Virus record (IMG/VR): IMGVR_UViG_3300043567_000458
Source: a virus
Taxonomy: Duplodnaviria; Caudoviricetes
Direction: 5' to 3' (one strand)
DNA: 64,000 nt
Positions within the stretch are counted from its first letter, which is position 1, and the number at the start of each line of letters is the position of its first letter. Positions 32,227 through 53,243 of this stretch are shown here, piece by piece. The notes beneath the pieces are model-generated. The model made no database searches. It saw only the letters and a program-made list of their open reading frames with translations, and was not told where the DNA came from. The position numbers and the translations under genes were made by a program.

Positions 32227-32598
32227 ATGAGAATAACAACTAACCTACAAGAAAATTTTCCCTTTATCAGTGTTATAGTGCATGTTAACCATGAATATGT
32301 GGGCATCATTATTAACCAAGATGCTCAAGTCACTAGTATGTATGACTATTCTATGATAAAAACAGACGAGGAAAAACAGCGATTTCTAGAACTAGGCGAA
32401 GCCTGGTGGTGGGAGTCGAACAGGCAAATTCCTATCAACATTTTCTTGGCCAGAGAAATCATTGAATTTCGATACGTAATTAGAAATTTTTCAACTAAAG
32501 ATGTCAAACTCATGCACGGTCCCTGCACTAGTTTAAATGACATTATTGTCAAACGAATCAAGCGTAAGTCGATTACTCTAGTTAGAAAGATCGGTTAA
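32227..32598 (+). CDS. Conserved hypothetical protein
   Basis: 123 aa (WWWESNR.IPINIFL); TATAAATA at 32170-32177. Confidence 0.75.
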   Translation: MRITTNLQENFPFISVIVHVNHEYVGIIINQDAQVTSMYDYSMIKTDEEKQRFLELGEAWWWESNRQIPINIFLAREIIEFRYVIRNFSTKDVKLMHGPCTSLNDIIVKRIKRKSITLVRKIG

Positions 32599-33343
32599 CT
32601 TGTTTTTCTAATAATTTTTTTATATCGGGATTCTTTTTCCAAGGACCTGTTAGAGACCAAATCTTAGAATCTTGCTTTTTAGTTACAAAATTTTCTAAAT
32701 TGCACAAATTAAAAAAATCGTGTTCTTGAGTTATTAGTTCCGACATGCAGACCTGATCTAATCCATACATATTCGCTCTTTGCAGTTTTTCCATATTTTC
32801 GGTAATAGTTTCAAACGGAATATGTTGAATTTTTTCGTTGTATAAATTTACAATATTTTTTATAAAGTTTTTTCTTTTGTCAGTAACATAAAGAAAATTA
32901 GCTCCGGTTTTCTTCCACAAAGTATCATACTGTGGATAATATAGAATACCCAACTCTACGCTATTGTCAAAATTTATTCTTTCATTAAAAATAATATCTG
33001 CGTCTACTATGTATGCTTTAGAAATTAAATTTTGTTCGAACAATAGATTAGAAATAAAATATCTCGAACAAAAATAATAACTTTTTAGTTTATAAAAATT
33101 AATATTTGTAGTTGTTAACTTCTCTTTACTAATTGAAAGATCGATTGATAATTTTAAATTTTTAATTTGCTCAAGTAGTAAATCGGAAGGATTTATTAAA
33201 TGTAAATGAACGTCGTGACCGTGATTGTCGCAAGAAAATAAATTATAAATTCCATAATTTATAAAATAATTCTCATCACATTGAAAAATTACTTTTTCTC
33301 TACCGTTTGGTCTAGAAATTAATTCTACATCTTGAAAAAACAT
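32582..33343 (-). CDS. Putative GT-A fold glycosyltransferase
   Basis: DVHLHLINP, CSRY, IVDADII (DxD) and GLDQ motifs; paralogue of 35767..36450; very AT-rich. Confidence 0.6.
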   Translation of the reverse strand: MFFQDVELISRPNGREKVIFQCDENYFINYGIYNLFSCDNHGHDVHLHLINPSDLLLEQIKNLKLSIDLSISKEKLTTTNINFYKLKSYYFCSRYFISNLLFEQNLISKAYIVDADIIFNERINFDNSVELGILYYPQYDTLWKKTGANFLYVTDKRKNFIKNIVNLYNEKIQHIPFETITENMEKLQRANMYGLDQVCMSELITQEHDFFNLCNLENFVTKKQDSKIWSLTGPWKKNPDIKKLLEKQVNRSF

Positions 33344-33921
33344 TAACTATACCCGTAACTGATCTGCTCACAGATCAAATTCATCTGCACCACAATAGCT
33401 ACAGCATAGGCAGTGGCATGCGATTGTTTGAAGAAATATTCTTCATTGTCGGGTTTCGTCCAAACTTCCGTCATCACCGTGGTCCATTCTTTCCCAATCA
33501 GATAACGTTTCGCTGGTCGGATCATCGCTAAAACGGCTGCTAGTTGTTCGATAGATTTTGGTTCCATCTTTCTTAGTATAGATCCATGACCGTTCACATG
33601 AAACAGATTCTGGATAAACTCTTCGTCTTGTAGTAGATCCCATAATGGCTCAGTCTCCATGAGTTGAATAAGGTGCGCCTCATCTCGAACACCTTTGTAA
33701 ATGCCAACATTTAAAAAATCAATCTTGAAATATTCTTCGGCTGCTGCATGATCGTATGGTATACTGCACACAGCTTTCTCAGCATTCATTGGAACACTAT
33801 GTAAATACACACCGGTGTTGTGTTTGGTCAGAGTTTCGTTGTCAACACGGCTGGCTGGCACATGCTTGAATAACTTTAGAGCATGGGCTCTGTCTACAAA
33901 GTCTATGTCGATATCAGGCAT
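33343..33921 (-). CDS. Miniature DNA polymerase III alpha (DnaE)-like protein
   Basis: PDIDIDF, FKIDFL, LAAVLAMIRP and FKQSHATAYA match C-family polymerase motifs in only 192 aa. Confidence 0.75.
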   Translation of the reverse strand: MPDIDIDFVDRAHALKLFKHVPASRVDNETLTKHNTGVYLHSVPMNAEKAVCSIPYDHAAAEEYFKIDFLNVGIYKGVRDEAHLIQLMETEPLWDLLQDEEFIQNLFHVNGHGSILRKMEPKSIEQLAAVLAMIRPAKRYLIGKEWTTVMTEVWTKPDNEEYFFKQSHATAYAVAIVVQMNLICEQISYGYS

Positions 33922-34126
33922 TGTTTTTGATCTCTGCGGGTGGAGTCCATGTAGCATAGTCTATCTTCTTCCACTGTCTAGGCCCGGGTGTGGTGTAAGG
34001 AGTATATATCTCGCCAGTCTCTCTATCAACCAACAACCATTTCTCTGGGCATTTAGTTGTAATTGTTAATTCTACTGCCGTATTGTATTCTTGAACTGTG
34101 GTTCCGTCTATGAGTTGTCTTGACAT
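33914..34126 (-). CDS. Hypothetical protein
   Basis: 70 aa (TKCPEKWLLVDRETGE). Confidence 0.7.
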   Translation of the reverse strand: MSRQLIDGTTVQEYNTAVELTITTKCPEKWLLVDRETGEIYTPYTTPGPRQWKKIDYATWTPPAEIKNNA

Positions 34127-34323
34127 TACTGCATCCTTGTTGTTTCGAATAGCAACAACGGAAGTGTCTCTGCTAAAAATGCTGCATATTCTTCTGCAGA
34201 TTCTTCATCTGCAAAGTTTGAAAATTTAACATATACACAGTGTTCACTATCTTCTTCTGTAGTCATTACTTCTATATCTATGTCATCACTAGAAATTAAT
34301 TCTTGTTTGTTTTCTTCAGTCAC
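34126..34323 (-). CDS. Small acidic protein
   Basis: Coupled at both ends. Confidence 0.65.
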   Translation of the reverse strand: MTEENKQELISSDDIDIEVMTTEEDSEHCVYVKFSNFADEESAEEYAAFLAETLPLLLFETTRMQ

Positions 34324-35003
34324 AGTATTTTGGCCTCCTTGATGACATCTTTTACTAATTCATGATCTGCTGGCAGAGCTTTAAATCTACGCAACCAAAA
34401 CTGAGGATCTATCATAGGCCCGATGATTTCTAATTGTTCATCGTTCATGCGGGTCAACATTTCTTTGCCTGATCGAGTATTCAATATCATCCAAGGACTT
34501 ACTAATCCTTCTTTGATATCATGAGTGGCTCTGTTTAGATTTACATAGGCAAAATAATGTTCCCATGCTGCAGAGTTTGATTCCGCCCATGACATCATGG
34601 TCATGATACTGCGTTGTATGGCACCATCAGCAGGCTCTACTTTGATTAAATCTGCGATATAGCTTTGATACAATTCATCTCTGCACCAATGATCTAGTTT
34701 AACTCCGCTCTTGACCACGTAGTCTACAAATCGCTCAGGATATATAGGCGCTGTATTAACCAAGAAACTGCCAAATTTCACAAAGGCTGTATAGAAACTA
34801 GAAGTGGCAAACTCTTCAAAGGTCTTGGGCTGTTGTGCTTTTTGTGTGAGCTGATAGAATCTTTGGAATGTCAACAATCCCATTAGCACATGTTTTTCAT
34901 TGCGGCTAAGATGGCGACGCTTTTGTTCACAAATATGCACTACCAAAGTTTTTTCTTTGGCAAATAATTTATTGCAATGTTCGCACTTAAAATTTAATTG
35001 CAT
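34320..35003 (-). CDS. C2H2 zinc-finger-containing protein
   Basis: FKCEHCNKLF...LVVHIC motif; start 35003 chosen (track 35084). Confidence 0.7.
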   Translation of the reverse strand: MQLNFKCEHCNKLFAKEKTLVVHICEQKRRHLSRNEKHVLMGLLTFQRFYQLTQKAQQPKTFEEFATSSFYTAFVKFGSFLVNTAPIYPERFVDYVVKSGVKLDHWCRDELYQSYIADLIKVEPADGAIQRSIMTMMSWAESNSAAWEHYFAYVNLNRATHDIKEGLVSPWMILNTRSGKEMLTRMNDEQLEIIGPMIDPQFWLRRFKALPADHELVKDVIKEAKIL

Positions 35004-35466
35004 TGACTTCTTTTTTGTCCCATCCAAGGGTTTGACAATAGTCTTTGATTTCTCGATCTGTAGTGATGGCTGCAAGTGTAGCAATGTCTGCCCTTTTCAT
35101 AGTTGGAAATATCGTGGCAAGAAATTCTTCTTTCCTGTTCTTTTCTTTTTTCAGAGGAATCCATTCATGAAACTGTTTGGCTTTAGATTCGTGACTGCAA
35201 GCCACTAATGTCAGCCATTGCAGTTTAGGGTGTTGGCTAATGTTGGCCCAGTTTTTGTTGTAGTATTGATTTACAGTGAGCAGATAGTGTTCTTGTATTT
35301 CTCTATCAGAGCCCGATACACTGCTGATATATCTGTTGAGATTCCACAGATCTCCTTTGATTTCTTTTCGGCCTTCTTCTGTGGCAGCGTCCCAGAGTTC
35401 TTTGATTCCCTGATCAACACAGGGTATGATATCTTTGAATAGATCTACGTGTTTATTTTTGGCCAT
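34987..35466 (-). CDS. Possible clamp-loader small subunit (gp62-like)
   Basis: Size and LNRYIS...VN..YN...HPKLQWL pattern recalled from gp62-like proteins. Confidence 0.45.
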   Translation of the reverse strand: MAKNKHVDLFKDIIPCVDQGIKELWDAATEEGRKEIKGDLWNLNRYISSVSGSDREIQEHYLLTVNQYYNKNWANISQHPKLQWLTLVACSHESKAKQFHEWIPLKKEKNRKEEFLATIFPTMKRADIATLAAITTDREIKDYCQTLGWDKKEVNAIKF

Positions 35467-35713
35467 GGTCTTTGCTCAAGTGATACAATATTTTAACACG
35501 TTCTAGGGCTTCTTGTAAAGTGGGATTCGTCCGAGATTCTCTTAAAATATCTTTCCAAGTATTTTCTAACTCATAATTGATGGTTATATTTTCGTTAAAT
35601 GGGTCGATATATTTTCCAATCATCGTTCGTTCTAATTTACCAACTTCTCTGGCATAGATTTCTTCGCCGTTGCGTTCGTAGATATATGTAGCACTTGGTG
35701 TTAATTTTCCCAT
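35453..35713 (-). CDS. Hypothetical protein
   Basis: 86-aa ORF in operon. Confidence 0.7.
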   Translation of the reverse strand: MGKLTPSATYIYERNGEEIYAREVGKLERTMIGKYIDPFNENITINYELENTWKDILRESRTNPTLQEALERVKILYHLSKDHGQK

Positions 35714-35766: not shown

Positions 35767-36450
35767 TTATACCTGCGAATTATAAAAATTTAATAAGTTT
35801 ACATACTGTTCGTTTTCATGTTTTCTAGATCCTTTAGCAGTCCATATCATTCGTTCGGGGGTCATTTTTGTACCGGTCCATTCAGAACTTAATCGAGGTA
35901 TTGATTTTTCTATCATCATAGCATCTAATATATCTTGATCTAAAAACCAATAAATGTTTCCTTGTTTGAAACTTTCTTGTAATCTAGTGCTATAAGTATT
36001 TCTAAAATCATCATCTCCAAACGATATTGCACTGGCTAACGATTTGCCACCTTTTCTAATAGTAATTTTACTAATGTTAGTTGCCTCTAAAAATTTAATT
36101 AATGGAATTGTTTTATTGGCAATCACATCACAATCAAAACTTATAATTTTTGCAGCTGGATCAAATATTTCCGGAATTCGTATAAATCGAATGCAGGCAC
36201 ATAGGGTATTAAATTCTTTATCATCAACATCTAGTAATTCGTTGGTGTAACTTATATTTTTTTGAGAACACCATTCTAGTTGTTTGTCTGTTGGATTATA
36301 CAAGTGAACATGAACTTTTGCCCACGGCGCATGTTGTAGTAAACTTAAGGCCAGTGCTTTACCATATAGATCAAAATATTTTGAATCTGCCGCAAAATAA
36401 AAAAAGTTACCCGTTAATCGAGCCGGTATATTCAAAGAAGGAAGAATCAT
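35767..36450 (-). CDS. Putative GT-A fold glycosyltransferase
   Basis: HVHLYNP, CIRF, SFDCDV (DxD) and WFLDQ motifs. Confidence 0.6.
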   Translation of the reverse strand: MILPSLNIPARLTGNFFYFAADSKYFDLYGKALALSLLQHAPWAKVHVHLYNPTDKQLEWCSQKNISYTNELLDVDDKEFNTLCACIRFIRIPEIFDPAAKIISFDCDVIANKTIPLIKFLEATNISKITIRKGGKSLASAISFGDDDFRNTYSTRLQESFKQGNIYWFLDQDILDAMMIEKSIPRLSSEWTGTKMTPERMIWTAKGSRKHENEQYVNLLNFYNSQV

Positions 36451-37262
36451 AGATTTTTTAATTCAATAAGCATTTGATCGTAATCGGAAATATTAAACTC
36501 TAATAATTTACGTGTGTCAATTAAGATTTTGTTTACGGGCTTTGGACCTTGTGTTTGTATAATGGTTTTGTTAAGAGCAAATATATCGTTTATTTTACAC
36601 AACAAGTCATATTTGTTAATCTTATTATCATTGTTAACAAGATGATACACTCCCGTAATTACCGGAGTTTGCATGTATTGATCAATGCATTTTGCCAACT
36701 GTAAGGTAGTGATGCCGTTCCACCAAGCATTGTTCCATCCTTGCAATTCACTTGCAGAATTATTGACAATCCAATTAAAGAGTCCTGTGCCATTTGATTT
36801 TATTTCAGGTCCGATGATACTCATTCTAAAAGTAACGTCTTTATCGTTGTTAATTTCACCTAGAGATTTCGACTTGCCATACAAGTTAGTTTCGGTGTGT
36901 GTATCTAATTCAACATAGTTTCCTTTCTTGCCATCAAACACACAATCAGTTGATAAGTGAACCACTCGTGTTTTGCTTTTTAAAAAGGTATGTTCTAAAA
37001 AGTGTGGAAACCAACCATTGATCAATGCAGCACGATCCGGACGATCGTTACTATCTTTAACTAACAATCCCACACAATTGATCACAAAGTCAAAAATATT
37101 TGTAACTTCACCGAGGCGTTGTATTTCTGCAAAATTCTCAACATCTATAATAAGATCTGCATTAGATCTTGCCAGTGTGCTTACATCGTGGCCTTGTTGT
37201 TTGAGATATCGAGTGATAACATGACCGGCCATACCGTTACTGCCAACTACTAAGATTTTCAT
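36447..37262 (-). CDS. RmlD-like SDR nucleotide-sugar 4-reductase (WbvR-type)
   Basis: GSNGMAG, VINCVG, HLSTDCVFDG and YGKSK motifs. Confidence 0.88.
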   Translation of the reverse strand: MKILVVGSNGMAGHVITRYLKQQGHDVSTLARSNADLIIDVENFAEIQRLGEVTNIFDFVINCVGLLVKDSNDRPDRAALINGWFPHFLEHTFLKSKTRVVHLSTDCVFDGKKGNYVELDTHTETNLYGKSKSLGEINNDKDVTFRMSIIGPEIKSNGTGLFNWIVNNSASELQGWNNAWWNGITTLQLAKCIDQYMQTPVITGVYHLVNNDNKINKYDLLCKINDIFALNKTIIQTQGPKPVNKILIDTRKLLEFNISDYDQMLIELKNL

Positions 37263-38251
37263 ATAAAATTGCCTTTCTTAAGCATTTCTTTAATGGCATT
37301 GCGTTGCATAATAAATGTTTTAGAACTAAACTCTTCTTCTGAAAACTTCTCTAAGCTGCTATACTTGTCTATTAATGTTTGTTTAGGATTAAATGGTAGT
37401 ATCACAAAATATGCATCGTCATATTTGTATGACATTACTGCTTCGTGTTTTGATATCAGCATCTCATCTAATTTTTCACCGGGTTTACTCCCCATCTCTG
37501 TAATTTCTGCATCGCCGTAGACATCTATCAAAATGTCTGCGATATCTTTGATGTATGCCGCTGGCATATTCATTACAAATGTTTCACCACCTATACTTTC
37601 TTCGGCAGCTTTAAATAGTAAACCAATAGCTTCTTCGAGTGTTAAGAAGAATCGAGTCATTCTTAGATCAGTGATAGTAACCGGTCCACCGTTACGGATC
37701 TGTTCTATAAAGTATGGAATAACACTGCCATTAGATCCCATAACATTGCCTCCACGTACACAGACAAATCTAGTATGATCGGTTAGATCGTTGGCTTGAA
37801 TAATCAACTTTTCACCCACAGCTTTAGTCATTCCGTATAAGTTCAATGGCTCAACTGCCTTGTCGGTGGATACATCGATGACTTTTTTAACACGATTTTC
37901 AATCGCAGCATTAACAACATTTGTTGTACCTATTACATTTGTTTTAATAGCTTCCTGAGGTTGATCTTCGCAGATAGGTACGTGTTTAAGAGCAGCCATG
38001 TGAAAAATATAATCAACATTCTTAGTAGCAAACTTAACTGCTTCGTAGTCTCTAACATCTCCTATGATGTATTTGATATTGAGATTTTTAAACTTACGTT
38101 GCATTAATACCTGCTGAAGTTCACCTCTTGAAAAAATAATAATTTCTTTAGGGTTGTGTTTTTCAAGCATTAATCGAGTCAGTGTTTGCCCCCACGAGCC
38201 AGTGCCGCCTGTAATTAAAATTCGTGCGTTGTCAAAAATACTATCATTCAT
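37259..38251 (-). CDS. UDP-GlcNAc 4,6-dehydratase/epimerase (FnlA/PseB/CapD-type)
   Basis: ITGGTGSWG, GDVRD, HMAALKHVP, STDKA, YGMTK and RGGNVMGSNGSV motifs. Confidence 0.9.
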   Translation of the reverse strand: MNDSIFDNARILITGGTGSWGQTLTRLMLEKHNPKEIIIFSRGELQQVLMQRKFKNLNIKYIIGDVRDYEAVKFATKNVDYIFHMAALKHVPICEDQPQEAIKTNVIGTTNVVNAAIENRVKKVIDVSTDKAVEPLNLYGMTKAVGEKLIIQANDLTDHTRFVCVRGGNVMGSNGSVIPYFIEQIRNGGPVTITDLRMTRFFLTLEEAIGLLFKAAEESIGGETFVMNMPAAYIKDIADILIDVYGDAEITEMGSKPGEKLDEMLISKHEAVMSYKYDDAYFVILPFNPKQTLIDKYSSLEKFSEEEFSSKTFIMQRNAIKEMLKKGNFI

Positions 38252-39002
38252 ATTTTACTCCGATGTCATCTGGGTTGTGGAATAATGCTCTATGTTTGTT
38301 ATCCAAAGATTCCACTTCCTCTGCAGGTCTTGTATTTGTATAGTAATACAAAATTAATGATCTACGACTTCTATCTTCGGGGCATTTTAACGGAGTAGGA
38401 TGACCGTGAAAACTAAAATCGTCAGTTCTAAATACAACCAGTCTGTTAAGTAATGGACTAATTTTATCAACGCATACTCCTGGTTTGTTGTCGGGGGTTC
38501 TAGACCACATTTCTAAATGGCCTCCCCATTCTTCTTGCCAATTATCGTTTAAGTATAGGATAACATTTAATCTTCTGTGTACTCCCATTAGATCGTGCCA
38601 GTTGCCGTCTGCGTGTACTGCTAGTGTGCCGCCTGTATTGATCTGGTTAAATCCGCCGCCTGTTAGATAGGGATCAGGAATAAGCCCATTAATTCCAGTT
38701 AGCTTAGATAAGAATCTTAAAAATGTTCCACCATTTAAAAAATTAATTAAATCCAATGTGTTAGCAGGAACATCACTATCGTCTTTCCAATCACTACGCC
38801 ATTTAATTTGAATCTTATCGTGATTACGCTTGTCCCAACTTTCAAAATTTTCATTGTTGAAGTCAGTTAGTGTTTCATTAATAACTTTTTCTGTAAAAAA
38901 ATCATCTATAGCAATATAGTTAAACGGTTGCTTAGATTGAAATTCGTTAGAAAGATCTTCTAGATCAAATTTGTCAAATTCTACATATTTCTTTTTCATC
39001 AA
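38244..39002 (-). CDS. 2OG-Fe(II) oxygenase (prolyl-hydroxylase-like)
   Basis: HAD (HxD), RRLNVILYLN, GGHLEMW, distal HGH and RRS motifs. Confidence 0.85.
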   Translation of the reverse strand: MMKKKYVEFDKFDLEDLSNEFQSKQPFNYIAIDDFFTEKVINETLTDFNNENFESWDKRNHDKIQIKWRSDWKDDSDVPANTLDLINFLNGGTFLRFLSKLTGINGLIPDPYLTGGGFNQINTGGTLAVHADGNWHDLMGVHRRLNVILYLNDNWQEEWGGHLEMWSRTPDNKPGVCVDKISPLLNRLVVFRTDDFSFHGHPTPLKCPEDRSRRSLILYYYTNTRPAEEVESLDNKHRALFHNPDDIGVKYE

Positions 39003-39008
39003 TTGTCC

Positions 39009-40082
39009 TTAGTTCGACAGTAGTATGTTAACAACTACGTCTGATACATTATTTTGATTGTACTCTTCAGGTATTTTCCAGTTCCTGTCAGCTGACTTCA
39101 TTCTGTTAAAGCAGGCAACAATATTTTCTTTATCCAAGCCGCTAATTACGTTAGAGCCGCACCAAACTGTTTCTGGTCTTTCTGTTGTATCTCTAATGGT
39201 AATTGTTGGTATACCGAATAAACACATTTCTTCTTGAACCGTTCCTGAATCGCTAATTGCCATATGTGCATTTTTTTCTAAGTTGACAAAATCAAAAAAC
39301 CCCAAAGGTTCCGTTATTATAATGTTTGGATTATCAACTAAAATATTAAACTTTGCTAATTTTTGTTTGGTTCTAGGATGACAACTAAACACTATCTTAT
39401 ATTCTTTAGATATTTCTTCAAAACTTTCAAAAATATTAATCAACCGATCGTTAACATCAACATTTTCTGCTCGATGCGCTGTGGCTATAATGTAGTTATT
39501 TTTTTCAAGATTAAGTGCTGATAATATAGGAGAACTGTCTATTTCATTTGCATAAAAATCTATTACTTCTTTAATTGGATTCCCCGTGACAAATACTTTG
39601 TTGTTTGCAGCACCTTCACGCAATAAATTTTGACGGCTTAACTCAGTATAAGGTAAATTTATACTAGACACGGCATCAATAATTTTTCTATTCTTTTCTT
39701 CAGGAACTTTAAGATCATAACAACGATTGCCAGCTTCCATATGATAGACCGGAATGCCTAATCTTTCACATATAATTGCTGCTAGGCCTGAATTGGTGTC
39801 GCCCAATATCAAAACTTTATCAGGCTTAAATTCGTTTACAAATTTTTCAACACCTACAAATGTATTACCAATTTGTTCTGCAAAGGATACAGATTTATTG
39901 TCAATTACATAATCTGGGTTTCTTAAACTCAATTCTTTGAAGAATACATCATTTAAATTTTTATCATAATTTTGACCGGTATGCAATATTTTATGATCAA
40001 CAATGTTATCAAGTTTAGGAATAATTCTAGATAGTCTTATAATCTCAGGTCTTGTTCCTAAAATTGTTAGAACCTTAGTCAT
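39009..40082 (-). CDS. Non-hydrolysing UDP-HexNAc 2-epimerase (FnlC/Cap5G/WbvD-type)
   Basis: GTRPEIIRL, HTGQNYD, LGDTNS, HMEAGNR, HRAENVD and SDSGTVQEE motifs. Confidence 0.92.
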   Translation of the reverse strand: MTKVLTILGTRPEIIRLSRIIPKLDNIVDHKILHTGQNYDKNLNDVFFKELSLRNPDYVIDNKSVSFAEQIGNTFVGVEKFVNEFKPDKVLILGDTNSGLAAIICERLGIPVYHMEAGNRCYDLKVPEEKNRKIIDAVSSINLPYTELSRQNLLREGAANNKVFVTGNPIKEVIDFYANEIDSSPILSALNLEKNNYIIATAHRAENVDVNDRLINIFESFEEISKEYKIVFSCHPRTKQKLAKFNILVDNPNIIITEPLGFFDFVNLEKNAHMAISDSGTVQEEMCLFGIPTITIRDTTERPETVWCGSNVISGLDKENIVACFNRMKSADRNWKIPEEYNQNNVSDVVVNILLSN

Positions 40083-41971: not shown

Positions 41972-42312
41972 TTTGAATACCCCACAGTTTCACGCTCAAT
42001 GTCATCGTGATCAAATTCTGCCCAATATAATTCAAATGCTACACAGTCTGTGACTGCTTCAAATTGATGATATTCGCCCGGAGCAACCTTTGTATATTCG
42101 CCTGCCTTTAACAAAGTTTCGTCTACGAGATCATAATTGCCTTTCCATACACGAATAATCATTTCACCGGACTCGACAAAGAATCCATTCCACTTGTATT
42201 TGTGTTTATGCTTAGAACATACTCCACCGGCGTTGGCTTCAATACGATGAAATTCTAATACACCGTTGGCTTCTAACAATTCTGTCTGTCCCCATACTTT
42301 TCCTGCTTTCAT
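41968..42312 (-). CDS. Cupin (sugar isomerase-like) protein
   Basis: KVWG, HKH...F.V.SG and PGEYHQF motifs; AAGGAG RBS; TAAATA upstream. Confidence 0.8.
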   Translation of the reverse strand: MKAGKVWGQTELLEANGVLEFHRIEANAGGVCSKHKHKYKWNGFFVESGEMIIRVWKGNYDLVDETLLKAGEYTKVAPGEYHQFEAVTDCVAFELYWAEFDHDDIERETVGYSK

Positions 42313-46105: not shown

Positions 46106-46111
46106 TATTCA

Positions 46112-46140
46112 AGTATACAGCCTTGATTTCTGGTTGTCAA
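46112..46140 (-). promoter_or_regulatory. sigma70-type promoter of the UvsW operon
   Basis: Minus strand TTGACA-N17-TATACT; the -35 box overlaps the TGA stop of the upstream gene. Confidence 0.8.
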
Positions 46141-46961
46141 CTGAATAATCTAGAAATTGGTATGCCTTGACGTATTTCGTCCACGGTCCACTCGGTGTGA
46201 CATAGTTTTAAAAACCATTCAGTTCTGTCTGGCACATAGGGACTGTCTAATTCTGACCATTTGATGCTGAGATCTGCAGCTAGACTAGACGAATCACACA
46301 TTATAGGAACACCATTTATGGCTGCTTGAATAGCTGGTCCGCTGTTATGGTTGATCACGCAATGATAATTGTAAAAAATATCAAAACTGTCATAGGTATC
46401 GGGTATAAGCACGGGTCTTTCTACCTCCACCCCAGATTGCTTGAACGGAAATGCTGACCGAGGATGATATCTCACACGGATTCTTCTATGAGTATGTTGT
46501 TTTATTTTTCCAATGGTGTCTGCTACCCAGTCTTTCATGGCAGGCATTCCTTGCCATTGTAGACTTTCTTGATGTTGGCAGGCTATTAATATTTCGCCAC
46601 GACGTGTGGTGGCAATTGGCTGCAATTTAACACCTAATTTTTCAGGTCTAGTTGGATCGAGATTGATATCGTTGCCGAATCTGCCAAGATTGTTGATATG
46701 GTCGAGACTGATGCGCCAAGTTTCGCCTCTTTTCAGATTTCCTACTTCTATGATCATCACAGATTTGCCTGATTGTCGACACTGTTCGTAGATTGTTTTA
46801 TTTGAACGCATTCTACCGGCCCATAGCACAGACCAAATCACAGACACGTCTTCGTTGTCATGCACAATGGTATGCCCTAGTTGTTTTAAACCTTGTTCTA
46901 GAGCGTCAAACACAGGAGGACTGTTTAACGCACCGTATTCTCGATATAATTTGAAGCGCAT
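46137..46961 (-). CDS. GT-B / KpsS-like (capsule synthesis) glycosyltransferase paralogue 1
   Basis: ILIACQ, VRYHP and VINHNSGPAIQAAINGVP motifs. Confidence 0.6.
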   Translation of the reverse strand: MRFKLYREYGALNSPPVFDALEQGLKQLGHTIVHDNEDVSVIWSVLWAGRMRSNKTIYEQCRQSGKSVMIIEVGNLKRGETWRISLDHINNLGRFGNDINLDPTRPEKLGVKLQPIATTRRGEILIACQHQESLQWQGMPAMKDWVADTIGKIKQHTHRRIRVRYHPRSAFPFKQSGVEVERPVLIPDTYDSFDIFYNYHCVINHNSGPAIQAAINGVPIMCDSSSLAADLSIKWSELDSPYVPDRTEWFLKLCHTEWTVDEIRQGIPISRLFS

Positions 46962-46969
46962 AATGTTGA

Positions 46970-47007
46970 TAAATAATCTACGTAGTTAATACTGCCATAT
47001 ATTTATA
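46970..47007. promoter_or_regulatory. Divergent late-type promoters
   Basis: TAAATA on plus at 46970-46975; TATAAATA on minus at 47000-47007. Confidence 0.6.
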
Positions 47008-47011
47008 GATC

Positions 47012-47410
47012 ATGAATAAGATTAAAAAAAGACTGAGTAAATTGTCAAAAAACGCAGACAATGCGTTGGTAATTGGTGCCGCATTTGGTCAATTAGAACA
47101 ACTGTTAGACTTATATTCAACAATTTTTGTTGTGAACGAAGACAACACAGAACTAAAAGCAAAAAATCTCATTTATAGACAAAGCATTGACAGATTAGAT
47201 AGCATTGTAAATGTCAGGGCAGTATTTTTTGACATCAAACACATCTCTAAATTAGAAAGTCTGCAAACATTTTGGAAGAAAAATAATTCGTTGATATTCA
47301 TTGAAGGCGGCGACGCTTTGCCTAGGGATCTATCAACGCCGTTATACGATTCAGGGTGGCGATGCACCAGTCTCCAAGGAGCATTTCACGTATGGGAAAA
47401 ACAACAATGA
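47012..47410 (+). CDS. Hypothetical protein (possible degenerate Rossmann/MTase fold)
   Basis: ALVIGAAFG; coupled to the next gene. Confidence 0.6.
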   Translation: MNKIKKRLSKLSKNADNALVIGAAFGQLEQLLDLYSTIFVVNEDNTELKAKNLIYRQSIDRLDSIVNVRAVFFDIKHISKLESLQTFWKKNNSLIFIEGGDALPRDLSTPLYDSGWRCTSLQGAFHVWEKQQ

Positions 47411-48240
47411 AAATAGCAGTAGTAACAACCTTTCACGAAGACGGACTTAACAAATATGCACAGCGTATGATCAACACCTTCTGCGAGAACTGGCCTACTG
47501 AGGTCATACTTCATTTATATCCCGAAAAGTGCAACCCTGCGATCCGTGATCACAGTCGTGTCACACTGAAACGTCTAGAAGAAGTTGCAGAACTAATGAC
47601 TTTTAAAAACACATGGAAAGATGTGCCTAAGGCCAACGGCGATGTGTCGGCGGATCCTGTGAGATCTCTAAGAAAAGATTCAGGCAAAGGATTCAAATGG
47701 CATGCTGTGAGATTTGCACATAAAGTTTATGCCATATTTGATTGTGTCAAAGAAACAGATGCGGATATTTTAATATGGATGGATGCAGATACTATTTGCC
47801 ACAGTCCTATCACCATGACCGATCTATACAAGATGATTCCCACTGATAGTGAGCTGTGCTATCTGGGTCGAAGGGGCAAATATTCAGAGTGTGGTTTGTA
47901 TGCAATGAATCTACGATCGCCTAACATTCAACTTTTTCTCAAAGAATTTCAAAGAGTCTATGATCAAGCCGAACAAGGAATTTTTCAGTTAGCTGAGTGG
48001 CATGACAGTTTTGTGTTTGATGCGGTACGAGTAAAATTTCCGCAGATGCGACAACTAGATTGGGCAGCACACTTGCATGACCTACGTCCAGCACCAGGAA
48101 TGACGTCGGGCGAAGGACACCCATTAATTAATAGCCAATGGGGCGCATGGCTGGATCACCTCAAGGGTGGTAGAAAGAAATTAGGTCGTAGTAAACCTGA
48201 AGATCTAAAAGTTCAAAGAACAGAAGCGTATTGGCGTTAG
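47407..48240 (+). CDS. Putative GT-A fold glycosyltransferase
   Basis: AVRFAHKV, IWMDADT (DxD), WHDSFVFD and DHLKG motifs. Confidence 0.7.
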   Translation: MKIAVVTTFHEDGLNKYAQRMINTFCENWPTEVILHLYPEKCNPAIRDHSRVTLKRLEEVAELMTFKNTWKDVPKANGDVSADPVRSLRKDSGKGFKWHAVRFAHKVYAIFDCVKETDADILIWMDADTICHSPITMTDLYKMIPTDSELCYLGRRGKYSECGLYAMNLRSPNIQLFLKEFQRVYDQAEQGIFQLAEWHDSFVFDAVRVKFPQMRQLDWAAHLHDLRPAPGMTSGEGHPLINSQWGAWLDHLKGGRKKLGRSKPEDLKVQRTEAYWR

Positions 48241-49163
48241 AGATACTGTTTGAAAAATTGCCAAGCTTCTCCGGATCGAAGTTCATTAAAATTCCAATGG
48301 CACATAGATATCTGTTCAATCCATGATTTTCTCTCGGGCATCTCGGGATTTTCTAATCGACTTAAATCTGTATTCGCTACTTGGTAACTTTGACTACGCT
48401 GTGGATTATGATCTGTAAGAAATGCCGGAACTCCTTCAATAATACTAGCCACGCTTGGACTACTGTTGTATACTACTGTGGCCCATGCACCTCTTAAATC
48501 GTCGACTAATCTTTCATTAACACTTAATCGTACACCTTTGCCGTAAATTTTTAAAATTGATTTAATTTTTTTATCTCCGGGGTGTGTTCGAACAACAATC
48601 TGACGTTTTCTACTATGCTGTCTAATTTGTGCAATAGTTTGATCTAACCATGTCTGAACATCTAGCCCACCCATGCTCCACCCACCGTGTCGCTGTAGGC
48701 AAATCAATATGTGCTCTCCCTGTGTTCTCCAAGGCTGCAAACTTATGCGTAAATCGTGACTAATTTTTTGCCAACGTCCAGGATCGATATCTCGATCAAA
48801 GTAAAATCCAGTAGTAGGAAAAACTCCATCAAAACTGTATCTCAGATAGGTTTTGGTATTATTCGGATCAGCATATAAAAACAAATTGCTGTCTACGATT
48901 AAACTTCTCCGATTGTTTTCTTTCTGCAATGCAACGGCATCTTGTCTCAATTGAAGATGAGGAGCCGATTTACCATGTTCGTGAACAAACCCCTGTATCA
49001 ATGCTACATCACAAGGCACAGCATTCATCCCAGTGTGTGCAATGGCATGATCCCCGGACGATTTCACTCCCTGCAAAAAATTATCCAAGATCAAAGGTTT
49101 TTCTGGATTCTTGTTTGTAGGCGGGATTCCACCATAATAGGCCACAGCGGTGATGTTAGACAC
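48237..49163 (-). CDS. GT-B / KpsS-like paralogue 2
   Basis: ILICLQ, VRTHP and VVYNSSPSVASIIEGVP motifs. Confidence 0.6.
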   Translation of the reverse strand: MSNITAVAYYGGIPPTNKNPEKPLILDNFLQGVKSSGDHAIAHTGMNAVPCDVALIQGFVHEHGKSAPHLQLRQDAVALQKENNRRSLIVDSNLFLYADPNNTKTYLRYSFDGVFPTTGFYFDRDIDPGRWQKISHDLRISLQPWRTQGEHILICLQRHGGWSMGGLDVQTWLDQTIAQIRQHSRKRQIVVRTHPGDKKIKSILKIYGKGVRLSVNERLVDDLRGAWATVVYNSSPSVASIIEGVPAFLTDHNPQRSQSYQVANTDLSRLENPEMPERKSWIEQISMCHWNFNELRSGEAWQFFKQYL

Positions 49164-50250
49164 TGTGATATTCCTTTACTATATTGTATGCAGTTCCGTC
49201 CATGAGTTCATTGTAGGTAAACTGACAATAACTAAGCCATGCTAGCCAATCGCCAAGCGGGCCATAATATAAATCATTGATCTGTGCTAGATTATTTCTA
49301 GTAACAGAGTTACTAACATGTTTGTCAAGAGTGATAGCAGGAATGCCTGCCCAGATAGATTCCACAGCACTGTTTGAATTGATACTAACCGTGCAATAGT
49401 AGTCTCCATCTAGCAGTGTTTGATAAAGACTAGTGCGTGTTTTCTTATTAGTTTTAGATCTAATTTCTATAGGTCTATCTGTGTGTTTTTTCAGTTCATC
49501 GACGATTTGTTTGGTCCAAGATTCCACATCTACATGCATGATGCTGGCTGCAAACTCGCCGGGCTCTACCACTAATATTTTTTTGCCAGTGTTACGCCAA
49601 GGTCTAGGAAATTCTGTGAAATTTTTCAATCTATCTGCAGGTGCAACAAATTGATTATTAAAATGCAGGTGATTTCTTGTAAGCCTATGCCATTTTTTAT
49701 TAGATTCAACAAAATTAGTATACCCGCTATCTATGAACCAGAACGGAAGATGATTATCAATTTTATCTACAATGATATTTTCATTGCCTACTGTGTTTCG
49801 TAATAGACAGTCTTCTGCGCTGTTCAAGAAATCTCTGCGACGAATCATAGTTGCTGTGGGATCAATTTGTAGTCCAACGGTTTTGATAAAATATTGTTGA
49901 TCACTATTCATATAGGCGTCAATGATATTTTCAGCACCTAATTTTTCTATCACGTATTCAGCCTTTTTGTGTATTTGGCCGAAATAATTTTTTCTGTAAT
50001 TTTCTAAAACTGTGTTGACTTTACTGCGCCATTCTATAGCATCCGCAGAGACTCCCCGCCATAGTTTTTCTTTAAACTTATCACGGAATTTTTCAATATC
50101 AAATTTATGATGATCTCTTTTTTCGATGATAAAGTGTATAGCTTCTGCAGTTTTACGCTCATCTAACTCAATGTGTGCGCAATGATCTTTTAAATCTATC
50201 AGACTGATAAGATAGTGTGCAAGTTCTTTGTCGTTTACTAGTAATTTCAT
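49156..50250 (-). CDS. GT-B / KpsS-like paralogue 3 with N-terminal extension
   Basis: FIDSGY, RPIEIRSK and VSINSNSAVESIWAGIP motifs. Confidence 0.6.
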   Translation of the reverse strand: MKLLVNDKELAHYLISLIDLKDHCAHIELDERKTAEAIHFIIEKRDHHKFDIEKFRDKFKEKLWRGVSADAIEWRSKVNTVLENYRKNYFGQIHKKAEYVIEKLGAENIIDAYMNSDQQYFIKTVGLQIDPTATMIRRRDFLNSAEDCLLRNTVGNENIIVDKIDNHLPFWFIDSGYTNFVESNKKWHRLTRNHLHFNNQFVAPADRLKNFTEFPRPWRNTGKKILVVEPGEFAASIMHVDVESWTKQIVDELKKHTDRPIEIRSKTNKKTRTSLYQTLLDGDYYCTVSINSNSAVESIWAGIPAITLDKHVSNSVTRNNLAQINDLYYGPLGDWLAWLSYCQFTYNELMDGTAYNIVKEYHSV

Positions 50251-51017
50251 TGATTTAATATTTTCCAGGCTGTACCGTTGGTAATTTCTTCTTGGGTGAA
50301 CTGGCCATACGCCAAGGTCTTACACATTTCGGTTATATTTTCTGTCGAAGGTTTGAATGGATTTCCGAGTGTGGATAGATCGGTAGATGCCAGAGTGCTG
50401 GCTGCGCAAGGCACCGAAACAAATGCCGGGATGCCGTATAGCACACTTTCCAATGATGCTATGCTGTTGAATGACACCGTGGCGTAAACTCCAGAATTAA
50501 ATGCGTCGTAAATTGAATATCCATGTCCCCTTTCACTTCTTGATCCTTTCGCCCTGATTTCAATCGGCAAATTAGAATATGTTTTTATTTTTTCAGTAGT
50601 TTCTTTAATCCATGTATCACAATCAATATCAAAATATCTACAGGCTTTGGGATTCGGCAATACCAATAATATCTTTTTATTAAAAGGTTTCCAGCCTTTC
50701 CAACTCAATCTAGGATCTTGGTTAAGAAGATTGATCCATCGATCGGCGGGAACTGATTGAGGGGTAATATGTTGTAGATCATTTTTTACAATTCGGTGCC
50801 ACCATTTTTTACCTGACTTGTTTCCTACACTTGGAAAATTACCTACATAACCAGTATCTATGTAATAAAAATCTCTGTTCGTCTTTTTGCACTCTACTAT
50901 TTCGCTTTTGCTTGTTACCCCACGAACAACCATAGGGTTATCAATGTTGGACATATCCGTAGTACAAAAATGATTCGACCCTACGACCAGAGATTCTTCT
51001 AAAGATAGTTCTTTCAT
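50247..51017 (-). CDS. GT-B / KpsS-like paralogue 4
   Basis: YIDTGY, RIVKNDLQH and VSFNSIASLESVLYGIP motifs. Confidence 0.6.
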   Translation of the reverse strand: MKELSLEESLVVGSNHFCTTDMSNIDNPMVVRGVTSKSEIVECKKTNRDFYYIDTGYVGNFPSVGNKSGKKWWHRIVKNDLQHITPQSVPADRWINLLNQDPRLSWKGWKPFNKKILLVLPNPKACRYFDIDCDTWIKETTEKIKTYSNLPIEIRAKGSRSERGHGYSIYDAFNSGVYATVSFNSIASLESVLYGIPAFVSVPCAASTLASTDLSTLGNPFKPSTENITEMCKTLAYGQFTQEEITNGTAWKILNQ

Positions 51018-51826
51018 AATGTTAATAACATCTCCATGGCTTTGCCGTTTCTCAATTCTGAATTATGAAACTGCCCGTATGACAAATGACAGGCCCACGC
51101 ATATAATTTATCTTGGTCGGGATAGTAAGGTTCGTTTATTTTAGATAGATCCTGCAAACTAACAGGACTAGCTGCATTAGCCGGTGCTAGAGTAAATGCA
51201 GGTATTCCAAGGAATACAGCTTCTGTAGCTGCTACACTGTTGAATGTAACTAATGCAAATACATCATCATTGAGGGCCTGTTCTAGTGTATCGTTAACTG
51301 TTCTATCTAATCTTTTAGGTGCCCGCTCTCTAACTACCACAGGTCTATCTGTGTATTTTTTTATTTCATTTACTGTATGTTCTAACCAAATATCTAGATT
51401 GTAGTCATAGAATCGCATGGGTTTTTCATCTGGTTTCGCTACTAGTATCTTTCTTCCATCTTTCTTCCAGGGCTGAAACTTTTTATTAAAATGTTTAAAT
51501 CTATCATCTTTTCTTGGCACGATCTCGCCATGTTGTAGATTGTTCTTTACTATACGATGCCAATTTTTCCAACCATTGGGATTTGAATCAGTTCTCTCAT
51601 TGCCAAAATATCCCGTGTCTATATAATAGAAATCACGACTATCTTCCCAACATTGGTGTATCCACTTTTTCTTAAGTATACCTCTTAATACAATAGGATC
51701 AATACTGTCGTTGTAATTAAAATCTTCAGTTGAAGTTGTTCTAGTGTTGCACCCCTGTGCAAACATGTTAATATATGGATCTTTGCCGTCTTTGCTTAAA
51801 AAGATCATAGACCGTGCTGTAGACAA
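51014..51826 (-). CDS. GT-B / KpsS-like paralogue 5
   Basis: YIDTGY, RIVKNNLQH and VTFNSVAATEAVFLGIP motifs. Confidence 0.6.
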   Translation of the reverse strand: MSTARSMIFLSKDGKDPYINMFAQGCNTRTTSTEDFNYNDSIDPIVLRGILKKKWIHQCWEDSRDFYYIDTGYFGNERTDSNPNGWKNWHRIVKNNLQHGEIVPRKDDRFKHFNKKFQPWKKDGRKILVAKPDEKPMRFYDYNLDIWLEHTVNEIKKYTDRPVVVRERAPKRLDRTVNDTLEQALNDDVFALVTFNSVAATEAVFLGIPAFTLAPANAASPVSLQDLSKINEPYYPDQDKLYAWACHLSYGQFHNSELRNGKAMEMLLTL

Positions 51827-52485
51827 TAATCTACGTAAATTTTTTCTCTATGCCATTCGTTGGAGAAATCACCCTGGTCTGAAAATTCATGGAAGCAAGG
51901 TGTTCCTAGGGTATAGTGAACTAATTTTGCTTGAGGGTTCCACTCGTATTCAATATCCAGCCAGTTCCATTCTACTGGAAGTTCGCCGACTAAGTCGTCA
52001 GTAAGCCATGTAAATCTATGTACCTGTGCTCCAGTGGCATTTTGTATAAACTCCGGAGTAACCACAGCATTGGCAGGGTGCCCACAGTTCCAAAGTATCA
52101 CACTAGACCAATTTTTACAAGGATAGTCTTCGTTCTTGGCACCAAGATACTTTTCAGACATTTTAGTTTTGTAGTCGTGTTTAACAACCATAACTGCTTT
52201 TGAATTATCTCTTAATGCCCATAGTTTTTCAATGTCGTCACGCAATAACATATCGCCGTCCATGAATATTGCCCAACCTTTATATTGCATTAAGTGTGGA
52301 ACAAGGAAGCGACTGTAGATAAAATGATTACTACCGTCGGTGTGTTTTTCTTCGTAGTCTTTTAATATGTTCAATGCCAACGGGTTAATACTCACTGGAT
52401 GACTAGAATGTCTAATAATACTGTTTGAACACACATGGTATGCTATGGCTTCTCGGGGATCATACCCAATAAAAATTGGAATCAT
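51805..52485 (-). CDS. Glycosyltransferase (GT8-like GT-A fold)
   Basis: IFIGYDPRE, FIYSRFLVP, FMDGDM, NWSSV, EWNWL and HYTLGTP motifs. Confidence 0.82.
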   Translation of the reverse strand: MIPIFIGYDPREAIAYHVCSNSIIRHSSHPVSINPLALNILKDYEEKHTDGSNHFIYSRFLVPHLMQYKGWAIFMDGDMLLRDDIEKLWALRDNSKAVMVVKHDYKTKMSEKYLGAKNEDYPCKNWSSVILWNCGHPANAVVTPEFIQNATGAQVHRFTWLTDDLVGELPVEWNWLDIEYEWNPQAKLVHYTLGTPCFHEFSDQGDFSNEWHREKIYVDYCLQHGL

Positions 52486-53243
52486 TTTCTTTCTATATCC
52501 TCTTCTATGCACTGATCTCCGTATTGTATTTCTACAACTTTCAGAGGCTGATCGGTTTCGTTGCATAACTTATGCCATTGATGCTTGTTGATGTGTATAT
52601 GTTGAAATCGAGTAAATTCACCTAGCAGATCCATGTCTGTAGATTGGTCAACAGTATAGACTGTAGCGATGCCTTCAGACACGAACCAATGTTCTGCTCG
52701 ATTTTGATGGCGTTGCATGCTGAGACAGGTTTTAGGTAATACCGTAAGTTCTTTGACTTTGACTTCTTGACCTTGTTCATGCAAGACACGATAGTATCCC
52801 CAGGCCCTACCGGTCTTAGGAGCCTTCCATTCTTGAAGAATCCACGAACTAGAATTCATTTTATTTTCGCCGCCCACACCAAATACAAATGACAAATTGG
52901 AATCTACAACATCCATCTCTGGAATGTTATCTTTGGTCCTATCGCCGCCATTGGCAAATATCAGTTTGGCATCGGGATAATGTGCTCGCACTTGTTGAAT
53001 AAAATGTTTTGCTGATCCGTCATCGTCATTAAAGGTATAAACTTCGTCAACCATCGATAGATTATTGATGATGCACAGTCGTTCGTTCCACGGCATAAAG
53101 GCCGCGCCTTTTTTACGGACAAGCCAATCGTCAGAATTTAATCCAACAATTAACATGTCTCCTAGAGTTTTTGCAGCTTTGAAGTAGGCAATGTGCCCGG
53201 AATGTAGGGGATCAAATCCACCAGTAATTAAAACGATTTTCAT
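52482..53243 (-). CDS. Cytidylyltransferase-family (RfaE/TagD-like) nucleotidyltransferase fused to a mannose-6-phosphate-isomerase-like cupin
   Basis: GGFDPLHSGH, GLNSD and FANGGDR in the N-domain; WGYY, LSMQRH..RAEHW and VEIQYG in the C-domain. Confidence 0.88.
   Translation of the reverse strand: MKIVLITGGFDPLHSGHIAYFKAAKTLGDMLIVGLNSDDWLVRKKGAAFMPWNERLCIINNLSMVDEVYTFNDDDGSAKHFIQQVRAHYPDAKLIFANGGDRTKDNIPEMDVVDSNLSFVFGVGGENKMNSSSWILQEWKAPKTGRAWGYYRVLHEQGQEVKVKELTVLPKTCLSMQRHQNRAEHWFVSEGIATVYTVDQSTDMDLLGEFTRFQHIHINKHQWHKLCNETDQPLKVVEIQYGDQCIEEDIERK

Follow-up and report, generated by a model that had tools for sequence, protein, structure and literature searches.

A strain-variable glycan-gene island in the replication module of a lake jumbo phage, tentatively read as a virion glycosylation system

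Large islands of lipopolysaccharide (LPS)-like genes are found in big aquatic phages, and their role has been debated since the first cyanophage genomes. On which molecule such an island builds its glycan is the question raised by the locus described here, which occupies positions 32582-53243 of a 64,000-nucleotide stretch (hereafter the window) of IMG/VR virus record IMGVR_UViG_3300043567_000458 (Caudoviricetes). About twenty soluble sugar-making, sugar-transferring and methylating enzymes are encoded there beside DNA-replication genes. The source is an uncultured freshwater (lake) jumbo phage with a T4-type replisome. Loci of this kind are already known; what is new is the fold assignment of a paralogue family, the architecture of a core plus two cassettes around the UvsW gene, and the promoter wiring. 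The question becomes testable here, as the soluble enzymes mostly stand on the promoter type of structural genes and the conserved core is separate from the two exchanging cassettes. Glycosylation of the virion is the best reading of the island, and a tentative one.

A first-pass annotation, made from the sequence alone, had described the region as a ~20-kb glycan factory, apparently under late control. Its enzyme inventory is borne out by Pfam, NCBIfam and fold searches of the reading frames: the island encodes about ten glycosyltransferase-like proteins, a trio of enzymes for a UDP-linked 6-deoxy-L-N-acetylhexosamine (UDP-6-deoxy-L-HexNAc), three methyltransferases, a 2-oxoglutarate (2OG) oxygenase resembling prolyl hydroxylases, and two cupin proteins, one free and one fused to a nucleotidyltransferase. 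The block is not continuous, since about 6.5 of its 20.7 kb belong to interrupting backbone genes that are unrelated to glycans (those of UvsW, a 394-aa protein, a polymerase-like fragment and proteins of 86, 159, 254 and 168 aa). Nor is the pathway self-sufficient, as had been proposed, given that the island holds no donor pathway for five of its transferases, the Kdo-transferase-like enzymes discussed below (Kdo, 3-deoxy-D-manno-oct-2-ulosonic acid). All island reading frames are intact, and the gene junctions are tight or overlapping. No island protein contains a hydrophobic 19-residue window scoring above 1.62, and all are predicted to be soluble; the island therefore lacks a flippase, a polymerase, an ABC transporter, a ligase and a phosphoglycosyl initiating transferase.

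The promoters tie most of this inventory to the structural genes of the phage. TAAATA is under-represented in the window (34 sites against ~78 expected from composition), and TAAATA-N4-5-ATG occurs at 14 sites against 1.85 expected, with none of 100 shuffles above 5. Those 14 sites include the ones directly before the genes for the large terminase (60425) and a virion structural protein (58827), one at either end of the tail-fibre module (1324, 3332) and one before the first gene of the right-hand glycan operon (53254). The heads of the glycan operons carry the same motif where the first-pass annotation had placed it. The right-hand operon is preceded by two elements (53254 and 53278; 53249-53278, minus strand), of which the proximal is 5 nt away from the ATG. 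A divergent promoter region (46970-47007, both strands) between the genes of a 274-aa paralogue and a 132-aa protein holds TATAAATA at 47007-47000 on the minus strand (TAAATA at 47005), facing the paralogue gene, and TAAATA at 46970-46975 on the plus strand, facing the 132-aa gene. Finally, TAAATA at 42337-42332, followed by a Shine-Dalgarno site, precedes the free cupin gene that heads cassette B. All three operon-head motifs are conserved in position in a related 49.6-kb IMG/VR fragment (G001) and in more distant contigs, between flanks that have diverged; one relative has lost one of them. Both motifs of the divergent region are kept in G001 and in L012-L015, and the proximal right-hand motif is kept in G001, L012 and L013 and lost in L014.

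The sigma70 promoters that had been noted before the primase gene and the UvsW operon are real near-consensus sites. TTGACA-17-TATACT at 46140-46112 (minus strand) ends 6 nt before the ATG of the 394-aa gene, and the primase promoter at 31135-31107 has the same architecture. Near-consensus TTGACA-N17-TATAAT/TATACT sites are concentrated at 4.7-20 kb, in the early region; in the right half of the window they stand before the primase gene (31135) and the 394-aa/UvsW operon (46140). Other sigma70-type sites include 5963, 6337, 13738 and 17263. The late-promoter consensus of T4, TATAAATA, is well established, and by analogy with it, and from the association of TAAATA with packaging and virion genes, we infer that the TAAATA operons are late. 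Of the late control claimed for the locus, the motif shared with packaging and virion genes thus stands; the timing itself is argued from T4, and one methyltransferase gene is driven by sigma70 instead. That consensus has been used in the form TATAAAT (PMC3037559). Both promoter classes often end right before an ATG, as TAAATA-N4-5-ATG (e.g., 60412-60425, 58814-58827, 53241-53254 and 17807-19) or as TTGACA-N17-TATA(A/C)T-N6-ATG, which suggests that many early and late mRNAs are leaderless, others keeping an AGGAG leader.

A major, hitherto unannotated component of the island is a family of five paralogues, four of them in tandem (51014-51826, 50247-51017, 49156-50250 and 48237-49163, minus strand) and the fifth a 274-aa core copy (46137-46961, minus strand). 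Sequence comparison confirms that they are mutual paralogues. No matches are obtained in Pfam, NCBIfam or PHROGs, or with a five-sequence profile against the Protein Data Bank (PDB), and the identity of the family came from a deep profile and a fold search only. The five-paralogue profile retrieves 4,749 clusters (50% identity) at E <=0.001 among 1.84 billion representatives, and the classified members of the protein-atlas clusters concerned are nearly all viral. The AlphaFold2 (AF2) model of 51014-51826, built on a 93-sequence alignment, has a predicted local distance difference test score (pLDDT) of 96.4. Its best 27 Foldseek hits, with probability 1.0, are all KpsC, WbbB or KrkA, except for the selenosugar glycosyltransferase SenB at rank 8. 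VIA, an independent second aligner, likewise places KpsC/WbbB/KrkA first (Z 11.8, 11.7 and 11.4 over 224-238 residues, then 9.4), the next unrelated match having Z 8.8. A family profile run against PDB sequences matches WbbB (E 0.009) over the nucleotide-binding motif. According to the model, the paralogues fold in a GT-B-like manner, with two Rossmann-type domains as in KpsC and WbbB. The earlier call of five GT-B paralogues was right, and paralogy, fold model and both structural searches allow it to be sharpened to beta-Kdo-transferase-like.

Apart from KpsC/KpsS (GT107), WbbB (GT99) and KrkA, which score best, the paralogue model has no strong structural match. These transferases use CMP-beta-Kdo as donor and form a covalent Kdo adduct on an Asp nucleophile. 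In comparison with them, the paralogues are shorter (256-364 aa) and 7-15% identical, and belong to a family whose classified members are nearly all viral. None of 93 family members matches PF05159 (DUF6716 is matched by 9 of the 93), a PF05159 search of G001 matched nothing, and the share of PF05159 reaches 18% in one atlas cluster of the family, no more. The His-Pro motif of the CMP-binding C-terminal domain, which aligns to RAHP of WbbB, is kept in 46137-46961 (as RYHPR) and in 48237-49163, and gives way to K-T, K-G and R-A in the remaining three. After the first strand of the C-domain, where the nucleophile is expected, two sequence-level alignments show no invariant Asp or Glu. On these three sequence grounds, membership of the paralogues in GT99 or GT107 is not established. 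By analogy, their donor would most plausibly be a CMP-activated ulosonic acid, i.e., host CMP-Kdo or a similar sugar; because the island has no CMP-ulosonic-acid pathway, this donor would be supplied by the host. If Kdo-type sugars are indeed transferred, the glycan would be acidic.

Homologues of the family occur in two cultured phages. In the unrelated Caulobacter phage CcrColossus (93581-108156), the homologue gp128 lies between a tail protein gene and the lysis cassette; further neighbours encode sialyltransferase-like, GT-A and GT9 proteins. In Pelagibacter phage Mosig (118156-136764), the homologue stands beside primase, ribonucleotide reductase (RNR) and RuvC genes, in a block that also encodes methyl- and glycosyltransferases as well as a sulfotransferase. 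Either phage offers a tractable system in which the family could be tested. A tblastn search of phage records with one paralogue (E 1e-5) gave no cyanophage among its matches.

The nucleotide-sugar pathway of the island lies in cassette B (35767-41971, minus strand), whose eight genes encode a methyltransferase, a GT2, a second methyltransferase, a 2-epimerase, the 2OG oxygenase, a 4,6-dehydratase, a reductase and a GT-A-like protein. The inverting UDP-GlcNAc 4,6-dehydratase (/5-epimerase) (37259-38251; Polysacc_synt_2, 2.5e-96) matches PDB 4j2o (E 2.6e-75), 2gn4 and CapE at E 1e-68 to 1e-75, and scores 327 bits with PseB and 258 bits with FnlA, both under the equivalog cut-offs. The RmlD-like reductase (36447-37262; RmlD_sub_bind, 4.8e-22) falls below the TIGR01214 cut-off, and the wecB-type non-hydrolysing 2-epimerase (39009-40100) reaches 292 bits with TIGR00236 against a cut-off of 210. 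An inverting dehydratase, a C4 reductase and a non-hydrolysing 2-epimerase, the three activities that this type of pathway requires, are therefore neighbours here. The same three enzyme types make up the WbvB/WbvR/WbvD routes to N-acetyl-L-rhamnosamine (L-RhaNAc) and N-acetyl-L-quinovosamine (L-QuiNAc) and the FnlA/B/C or Cap5E/F/G route to N-acetyl-L-fucosamine (L-FucNAc); in contrast to these pathways, the dehydratase and the reductase of the island stay below the NCBIfam equivalog cut-offs, and a 2OG oxygenase gene is inserted. By analogy, the product of the trio would be a UDP-2-acetamido-2,6-dideoxy-L-hexose of the L-RhaNAc/L-QuiNAc type. The inserted oxygenase (38244-39002, minus strand), encoded between the 2-epimerase and dehydratase genes, is closest to the protein prolyl hydroxylases OGFOD1 (E 1.4e-5), Tpa1 and P4H, and not to TET/JBP. 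A second 2OG oxygenase gene (phrog_81) is present elsewhere in the window, at 22266-22874.

The remainder of cassette B consists of a methyltransferase (40075-40608) recognised by Pfam/NCBIfam, a GT2 (40605-41375) recognised by Pfam, a weakly assigned methyltransferase (41372-41971) and the 227-aa GT-A-like protein (35767-36450), all on the minus strand. The G+C content of the cassette is 0.34-0.37, against 0.47-0.50 in the first 20 kb. At its head stands the free cupin of 114 aa (41968-42312, minus strand), which is weakly WbuC-like (Pfam Cupin_2, 2.2e-06; TIGR04366, E 3.8e-4, below the cut-off). The third methyltransferase belongs to the FkbM family (42842-43483, minus strand; Methyltransf_21, 8.3e-11; TIGR01444 above the cut-off) and is a clean insertion, as UvsW is directly followed by the 168-aa gene in G001. 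Among relatives, this slot holds zero to two different methyltransferases.

The right-hand operon begins with the gene for the fusion of an HldE-domain-II/TagD-like nucleotidyltransferase with a cupin of the phosphomannose isomerase (PMI) type (52482-53243, minus strand; CTP_transf_like, 2.4e-11; MannoseP_isomer, 8.2e-21; NCBIfam rfaE_dom_II, 1.7e-21, below the cut-off). The fusion is found in most relatives whose contigs reach the right end of the island. A GT8-like GT-A glycosyltransferase follows (51805-52566, minus strand; Glyco_transf_8, 4.8e-07, above the cut-off; phrog_28018); its gene probably starts at ~52512, the G001 orthologue having 235 aa. The first-pass annotation had added three other DxD proteins, which fare unequally. 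The 253-aa protein at 32582-33343 (minus strand), with an invariant D-x-D, has no Pfam or PDB match and is less certainly a GT77/GT8-type GT-A enzyme: language-model features place it there, with an atlas score of 0.97, 191 features shared with virus clusters of PF03407/PF01501, and its ten best named atlas matches all in one clan. The protein at 35767-36450 is a weak paralogue of it. The core 294-aa protein (47356-48240, plus strand), with an invariant W-x-D-x-D, is assigned to GT2 weakly, by a sub-threshold match (Glycos_transf_2, E 0.0022), and a PDB profile search with it gave no meaningful match; it is kept in most of the ~30 relatives at 56-96% identity. When the DxD proteins are aligned to the GT8 family with hhalign, the DxD strands coincide at a probability of only 1-4.5% (4.5% for 32582-33343). 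The neighbouring core 132-aa protein (47012-47410, plus strand) carries a Rossmann-like G-x-A-F-G motif, has no family match and evolves fast (25-88% identity across its alignment); it is 25-62% identical where its neighbours keep 65-93%.

Comparison of 30 related loci, taken from European Nucleotide Archive (ENA) contigs and IMG/VR, separates what is kept from what is exchanged. The core, present in most relatives down to 33-53% identity, comprises the 294-aa and 132-aa genes on one strand and, on the other, the genes for the 274-aa paralogue (of the five copies, the one kept in most relatives, at 53-95% identity), the 394-aa protein, UvsW, the 168-aa protein and the cupin. Two hypervariable regions of sugar genes flank it. 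Region A separates UvsY from the 294-aa gene; some relatives have the nucleotidyltransferase-cupin, GT8 and two to five paralogues there, and others an entirely different set of 9-10 genes that are encoded on the other strand. Between the cupin and the 86/159/254-aa genes comes region B, whose content of zero to eight genes is different in almost every relative. In place of cassette B, sugar genes unrelated to it are found in G001, L012, L013, L014 and others, and L019, L020, L029 and L030 lack the cassette; in G001, the substitute is ~3 kb of other sugar genes between flanks that are 90-94% identical. The ENA contigs L012 and L013 encode one and the same 395-aa anchor protein and agree in gene order on the left-hand side, but have wholly different cassettes after UvsW, which points to very recent cassette exchange. 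In a distant relative, the same module of dehydratase, epimerase, reductase, methyltransferase and GT2 genes (56-76% identity) lies in region A, on the other strand. Among 138 non-redundant island proteins of relatives, almost all of the 25 most frequent of 56 matched Pfam families are sugar-related, headed by nucleoside diphosphate (NDP)-sugar epimerases/dehydratases/reductases (15), GDP-mannose-dehydratase-like proteins (12), FkbM (12) and Polysacc_synt_2 (9), followed by GT25 (6), GT2 (5), GT8 (4), other methyltransferases, DegT aminotransferases, UDP-sugar dehydrogenases and TylF O-methyltransferases.

Altogether, a model can be proposed in which T4-late-type TAAATA promoters would drive most glycan genes along with those for packaging and virion proteins. 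UDP-GlcNAc would be converted by the dehydratase, the RmlD-type reductase and the 2-epimerase of region B into UDP-2-acetamido-2,6-dideoxy-L-hexose, the nucleotidyltransferase-isomerase fusion would activate a second sugar phosphate, and the paralogues would use host CMP-Kdo or a similar sugar. The enzymes, working in the cytoplasm, would then build up a methylated hetero-oligosaccharide step by step on an acceptor made by the phage, most likely at least one virion protein, and cassette exchange among relatives would give each strain a different glycan. A phage-made cytoplasmic acceptor is favoured by the structural-type promoters, by the absence of any membrane or export component, by the prolyl-hydroxylase affinities of the 2OG enzyme and by the context of the CcrColossus homologue.

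The first-pass proposal of virion decoration is supported in part by these points; several observations weigh against it. No window reading frame contains a Ser/Thr-rich or Pro-rich tag, and no acceptor was identified. The capsid and tail-tube genes lie outside the window, and a capsid-gene search of five related IMG/VR records matched none, the control genomes giving none either, so that this search is uninformative. The island sits in the replication/recombination module, interleaved with UvsW and the polymerase fragment, rather than beside capsid genes, and the small homologous block of Mosig is likewise in a replication setting (primase, RNR, RuvC). TAAATA also precedes the genes for a DNA methyltransferase (17807) and gp32 (56340) and the gene upstream of primase (32222), the FkbM methyltransferase and 168-aa genes lie inside the sigma70-driven UvsW operon, and the label "late" is itself an analogy. 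The known members of the nearest structural family use lipid-linked acceptors at the inner membrane rather than proteins. Finally, similar islands have been interpreted as serving modification of the host surface (PMC7029224, PMC12801897).

A more specific form of virion glycosylation, which we consider somewhat unlikely, can be envisaged: a strain-variable methylated glycan on virion proteins, made by a nearly virus-only beta-Kdo-transferase-like family and possibly begun, in this strain, on hydroxyproline. If so, the hydroxyproline start would be a phage counterpart of the cytoplasmic hydroxyproline-glycosylation pathway of protist Skp1, and cassette swapping would create phage "glycotypes" analogous to bacterial O-serotypes. 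More generally, if the virion is the target, the range of complex particle glycosylation, now giant viruses and a few mycobacteriophages, would widen to include jumbo phages of Gram-negative-type hosts, with a bearing on phage recognition, grazing and immune evasion.

The alternative that survives best, although we consider it somewhat unlikely, is that the soluble enzymes remodel the host envelope. They would modify lipid-linked O-antigen, capsule or core intermediates of the host at the cytoplasmic face of the inner membrane by adding caps (e.g., of Kdo type, as WbbB does), branches or methyls, which host transporters would export; masking of the receptor would then block superinfection or keep progeny from being trapped on debris. 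The nearest solved structures, KpsC, WbbB and KrkA, all use lipid-linked acceptors, and GT8, GT25, GT2 and the 6-deoxy-L-HexNAc route are classical LPS/capsule families. Host machinery would remove the need for export genes, and strain-level hypervariability mirrors the diversity of host O-antigens. On the other side, promoters of the late type, shared with packaging genes, would allow little time before lysis for the glycan to be exported and the surface to turn over, the island has no membrane-anchoring segment or initiating transferase, and the prolyl-hydroxylase-like enzyme would have no obvious role. Moreover, the known, experimentally proven cases of serotype conversion by phages involve temperate phages with integral-membrane proteins of Gtr or Wzy type. 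Remodelling of the host envelope is nonetheless the published reading of pelagimyophage and cyanophage islands (PMC7029224, PMC12801897, PMC3037559).

It is improbable that the island serves another purpose through a glycoconjugate that is free or bound to lipid, such as a decoy or a polymer for storage or osmotic balance, or that it is largely dispensable cargo in a recombination hot spot. The absence of cassette B from four relatives agrees with such a role, its low G+C content suggests a foreign origin, and the LPS clusters of cyanophages were at one time proposed to be "stuffer DNA" (PMC3037559). Yet the core genes are kept in most of the ~30 relatives despite low sequence identity, frames are intact, junctions tight or overlapping and promoters conserved, and the exact 10-kb stretch at 44000-53999 persists in at least 24 lake metagenome runs from 2020 to 2025. 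Least probable of all is hypermodification of the phage DNA, in which a strain-variable oligosaccharide on a hydroxymethylated or otherwise activated base would protect against restriction and other nucleases: the island is embedded in, and partly co-transcribed with, the genes for UvsX, UvsY, UvsW, primase and the polymerase fragment, a NodU-type carbamoyltransferase gene lies nearby, hypervariability fits an arms race with modification-dependent nucleases, and LPS-like phage glycosyltransferases do put mono- to trisaccharides on 5-hydroxymethylcytosine (bioRxiv 10.1101/2023.12.21.572611), but some ten transferases with methylation and deoxy-amino-sugar tailoring far exceed known DNA glycans (a trisaccharide at most), most operon heads carry the late-type promoter, the window DNA methyltransferase is of the N4/N6 amino type and not C5, both window 2OG enzymes belong to other families (that of the island being nearest to prolyl hydroxylases), and no neighbouring reactive-base enzyme, neither a deoxynucleoside monophosphate hydroxymethylase nor a TET/JBP-type oxygenase, was found among the window reading frames scanned (64 kb of a ~350-kb genome).

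The first-pass annotation had also held that a self-sufficient pathway of this size would be well beyond characterised phage glycosylation. At the gene level this view is overstated, since islands as large are already known in T4-like cyanophages and pelagimyophages (PMC3037559, PMC7029224, PMC12801897). LPS gene clusters were described in the T4-like phages P-SSM2, S-SM2 and S-SSM7, whose authors asked whether they are "functional or stuffer DNA" (PMC3037559). In pelagimyophages, hypervariable regions contain many genes of GT8 and rfaE type, which are interpreted as modifying the host O-chain (PMC7029224), and S-SCSM2R carries 22 such genes, including 13 glycosyltransferases, TagD, KdsA and KdsB (PMC12801897). 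These phages (P-SSM2, S-SM2, S-SSM7, S-SCSM1, S-SCSM2R) are likewise large myoviruses with a T4-type core, and their hypervariable islands likewise combine at least ten glycosyltransferases with NDP-sugar epimerases/dehydratases and cytidylyltransferases; the function of those islands, too, is putative. The present locus, in which a T4-type replisome accompanies a glycosyltransferase/NDP-sugar cluster that varies between relatives, belongs with these T4-like "LPS gene" islands. It differs from them in its location, which is around UvsW within the replication/recombination module and neither between VrlC and gp14 nor near hli/phoH, in being dominated by the array of beta-Kdo-transferase-like paralogues (a family of ~4,700 clusters), and in its carrier, a lake jumbo phage of ~350 kb with another host clade and habitat.

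Giant viruses share a rare-sugar pathway, many soluble transferases and methyltransferases, and a content specific to each clade. In Mimivirus and Megavirus (fibrils) and in chloroviruses (capsids), virus-encoded glycan clusters are expressed late and the glycans have been demonstrated on virions. Those viruses infect eukaryotes. For the mycobacteriophages Che8, Corndog and Myrna, the accounts that cite Freeman et al. 2023 (PMC12619734, PMC12801897) describe soluble phage glycosyltransferases, sometimes with methyltransferases, in systems of 1-4 transferases beside capsid/tail genes, with Ser/Thr-rich C-terminal tails on the acceptors. Compared with what those accounts describe, the present island has ~10 transferases and a nucleotide-sugar pathway, does not lie beside capsid or tail genes, and comes without an acceptor tag in the window reading frames.

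The replication and recombination genes of the window encode a DnaB-like helicase (27031-28488), primase (30081-31100), UvsY (53276-53731) and RecA/UvsX (53962-55041), so that the island is placed between UvsY/UvsX and primase. Beyond it follow gp32 (55296-56264) and the large terminase (58828-60414); virion proteins and a tail-fibre gene are also encoded in the window, the terminase and virion genes starting only at 56.9 kb. The closest cultured DNA matches are the jumbo phages Atu_ph07, PA5oct and GAP32, over UvsW only, and in Atu_ph07 UvsW is surrounded by hypothetical proteins only. The genome is estimated at ~350 kb because CheckV gives completeness values of 14% for G001 and 24% for an 85-kb relative. 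The Moraphage lineage (PMC12619734) was considered as the clade and shows no obvious fit, having a reduced replication machinery and Bacteroidota hosts. The lake metagenome runs mentioned above match the stretch at 44000-53999 exactly (99-100% of sampled words), and the phage population carrying this version of the cassette appears stable and recurrent. This abundance and stability make glycoproteomics of virion fractions and nucleoside analysis feasible. No RNA run is among the datasets listed as containing the exact stretch; two lake metatranscriptome runs of one study yielded short contigs from relatives (90-95% alike, DNA carry-over being possible) that span the dehydratase, FkbM, UvsW, 394-aa, nucleotidyltransferase and UvsY genes and are uninformative on timing and transcript starts.

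The backbone genes that interrupt the island are all on the minus strand. Those at 33343-35713 encode the 86-, 159- and 254-aa proteins (phrog_11778, phrog_11058, phrog_11758) and a 204-aa polymerase-like fragment or mini-polymerase (33343-33957), and are 91-98% identical in G001. The core 168-aa protein (42339-42845; phrog_11279, 3.5e-49) is 79-99% identical in relatives. The UvsW-type helicase (43480-44973; Pfam ResIII/DEAD/Helicase_C) probably starts at 44934, orthologues having 484 aa, and its start is overlapped by the gene of the 394-aa protein (44921-46105). The latter is conserved in all relatives, down to 33% identity, and none of 660 homologues has a Pfam domain; its AF2 model (pLDDT 84.7) gives weak, consistent matches to XPB, WRN, T4 UvsW, SMARCAL1 and Mfd. 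On this model, it may be a degenerate helicase-like (superfamily 2) partner of UvsW, and it was rejected as a glycan enzyme or acceptor, being helicase-like and part of the backbone. Outside the island, a NodU/Nol-type carbamoyltransferase is encoded at 28506-29975 (minus strand), between the helicase and primase genes, and could carbamoylate a glycan or DNA; its position is another variable slot, because an unrelated 315-aa reading frame takes it in G001.

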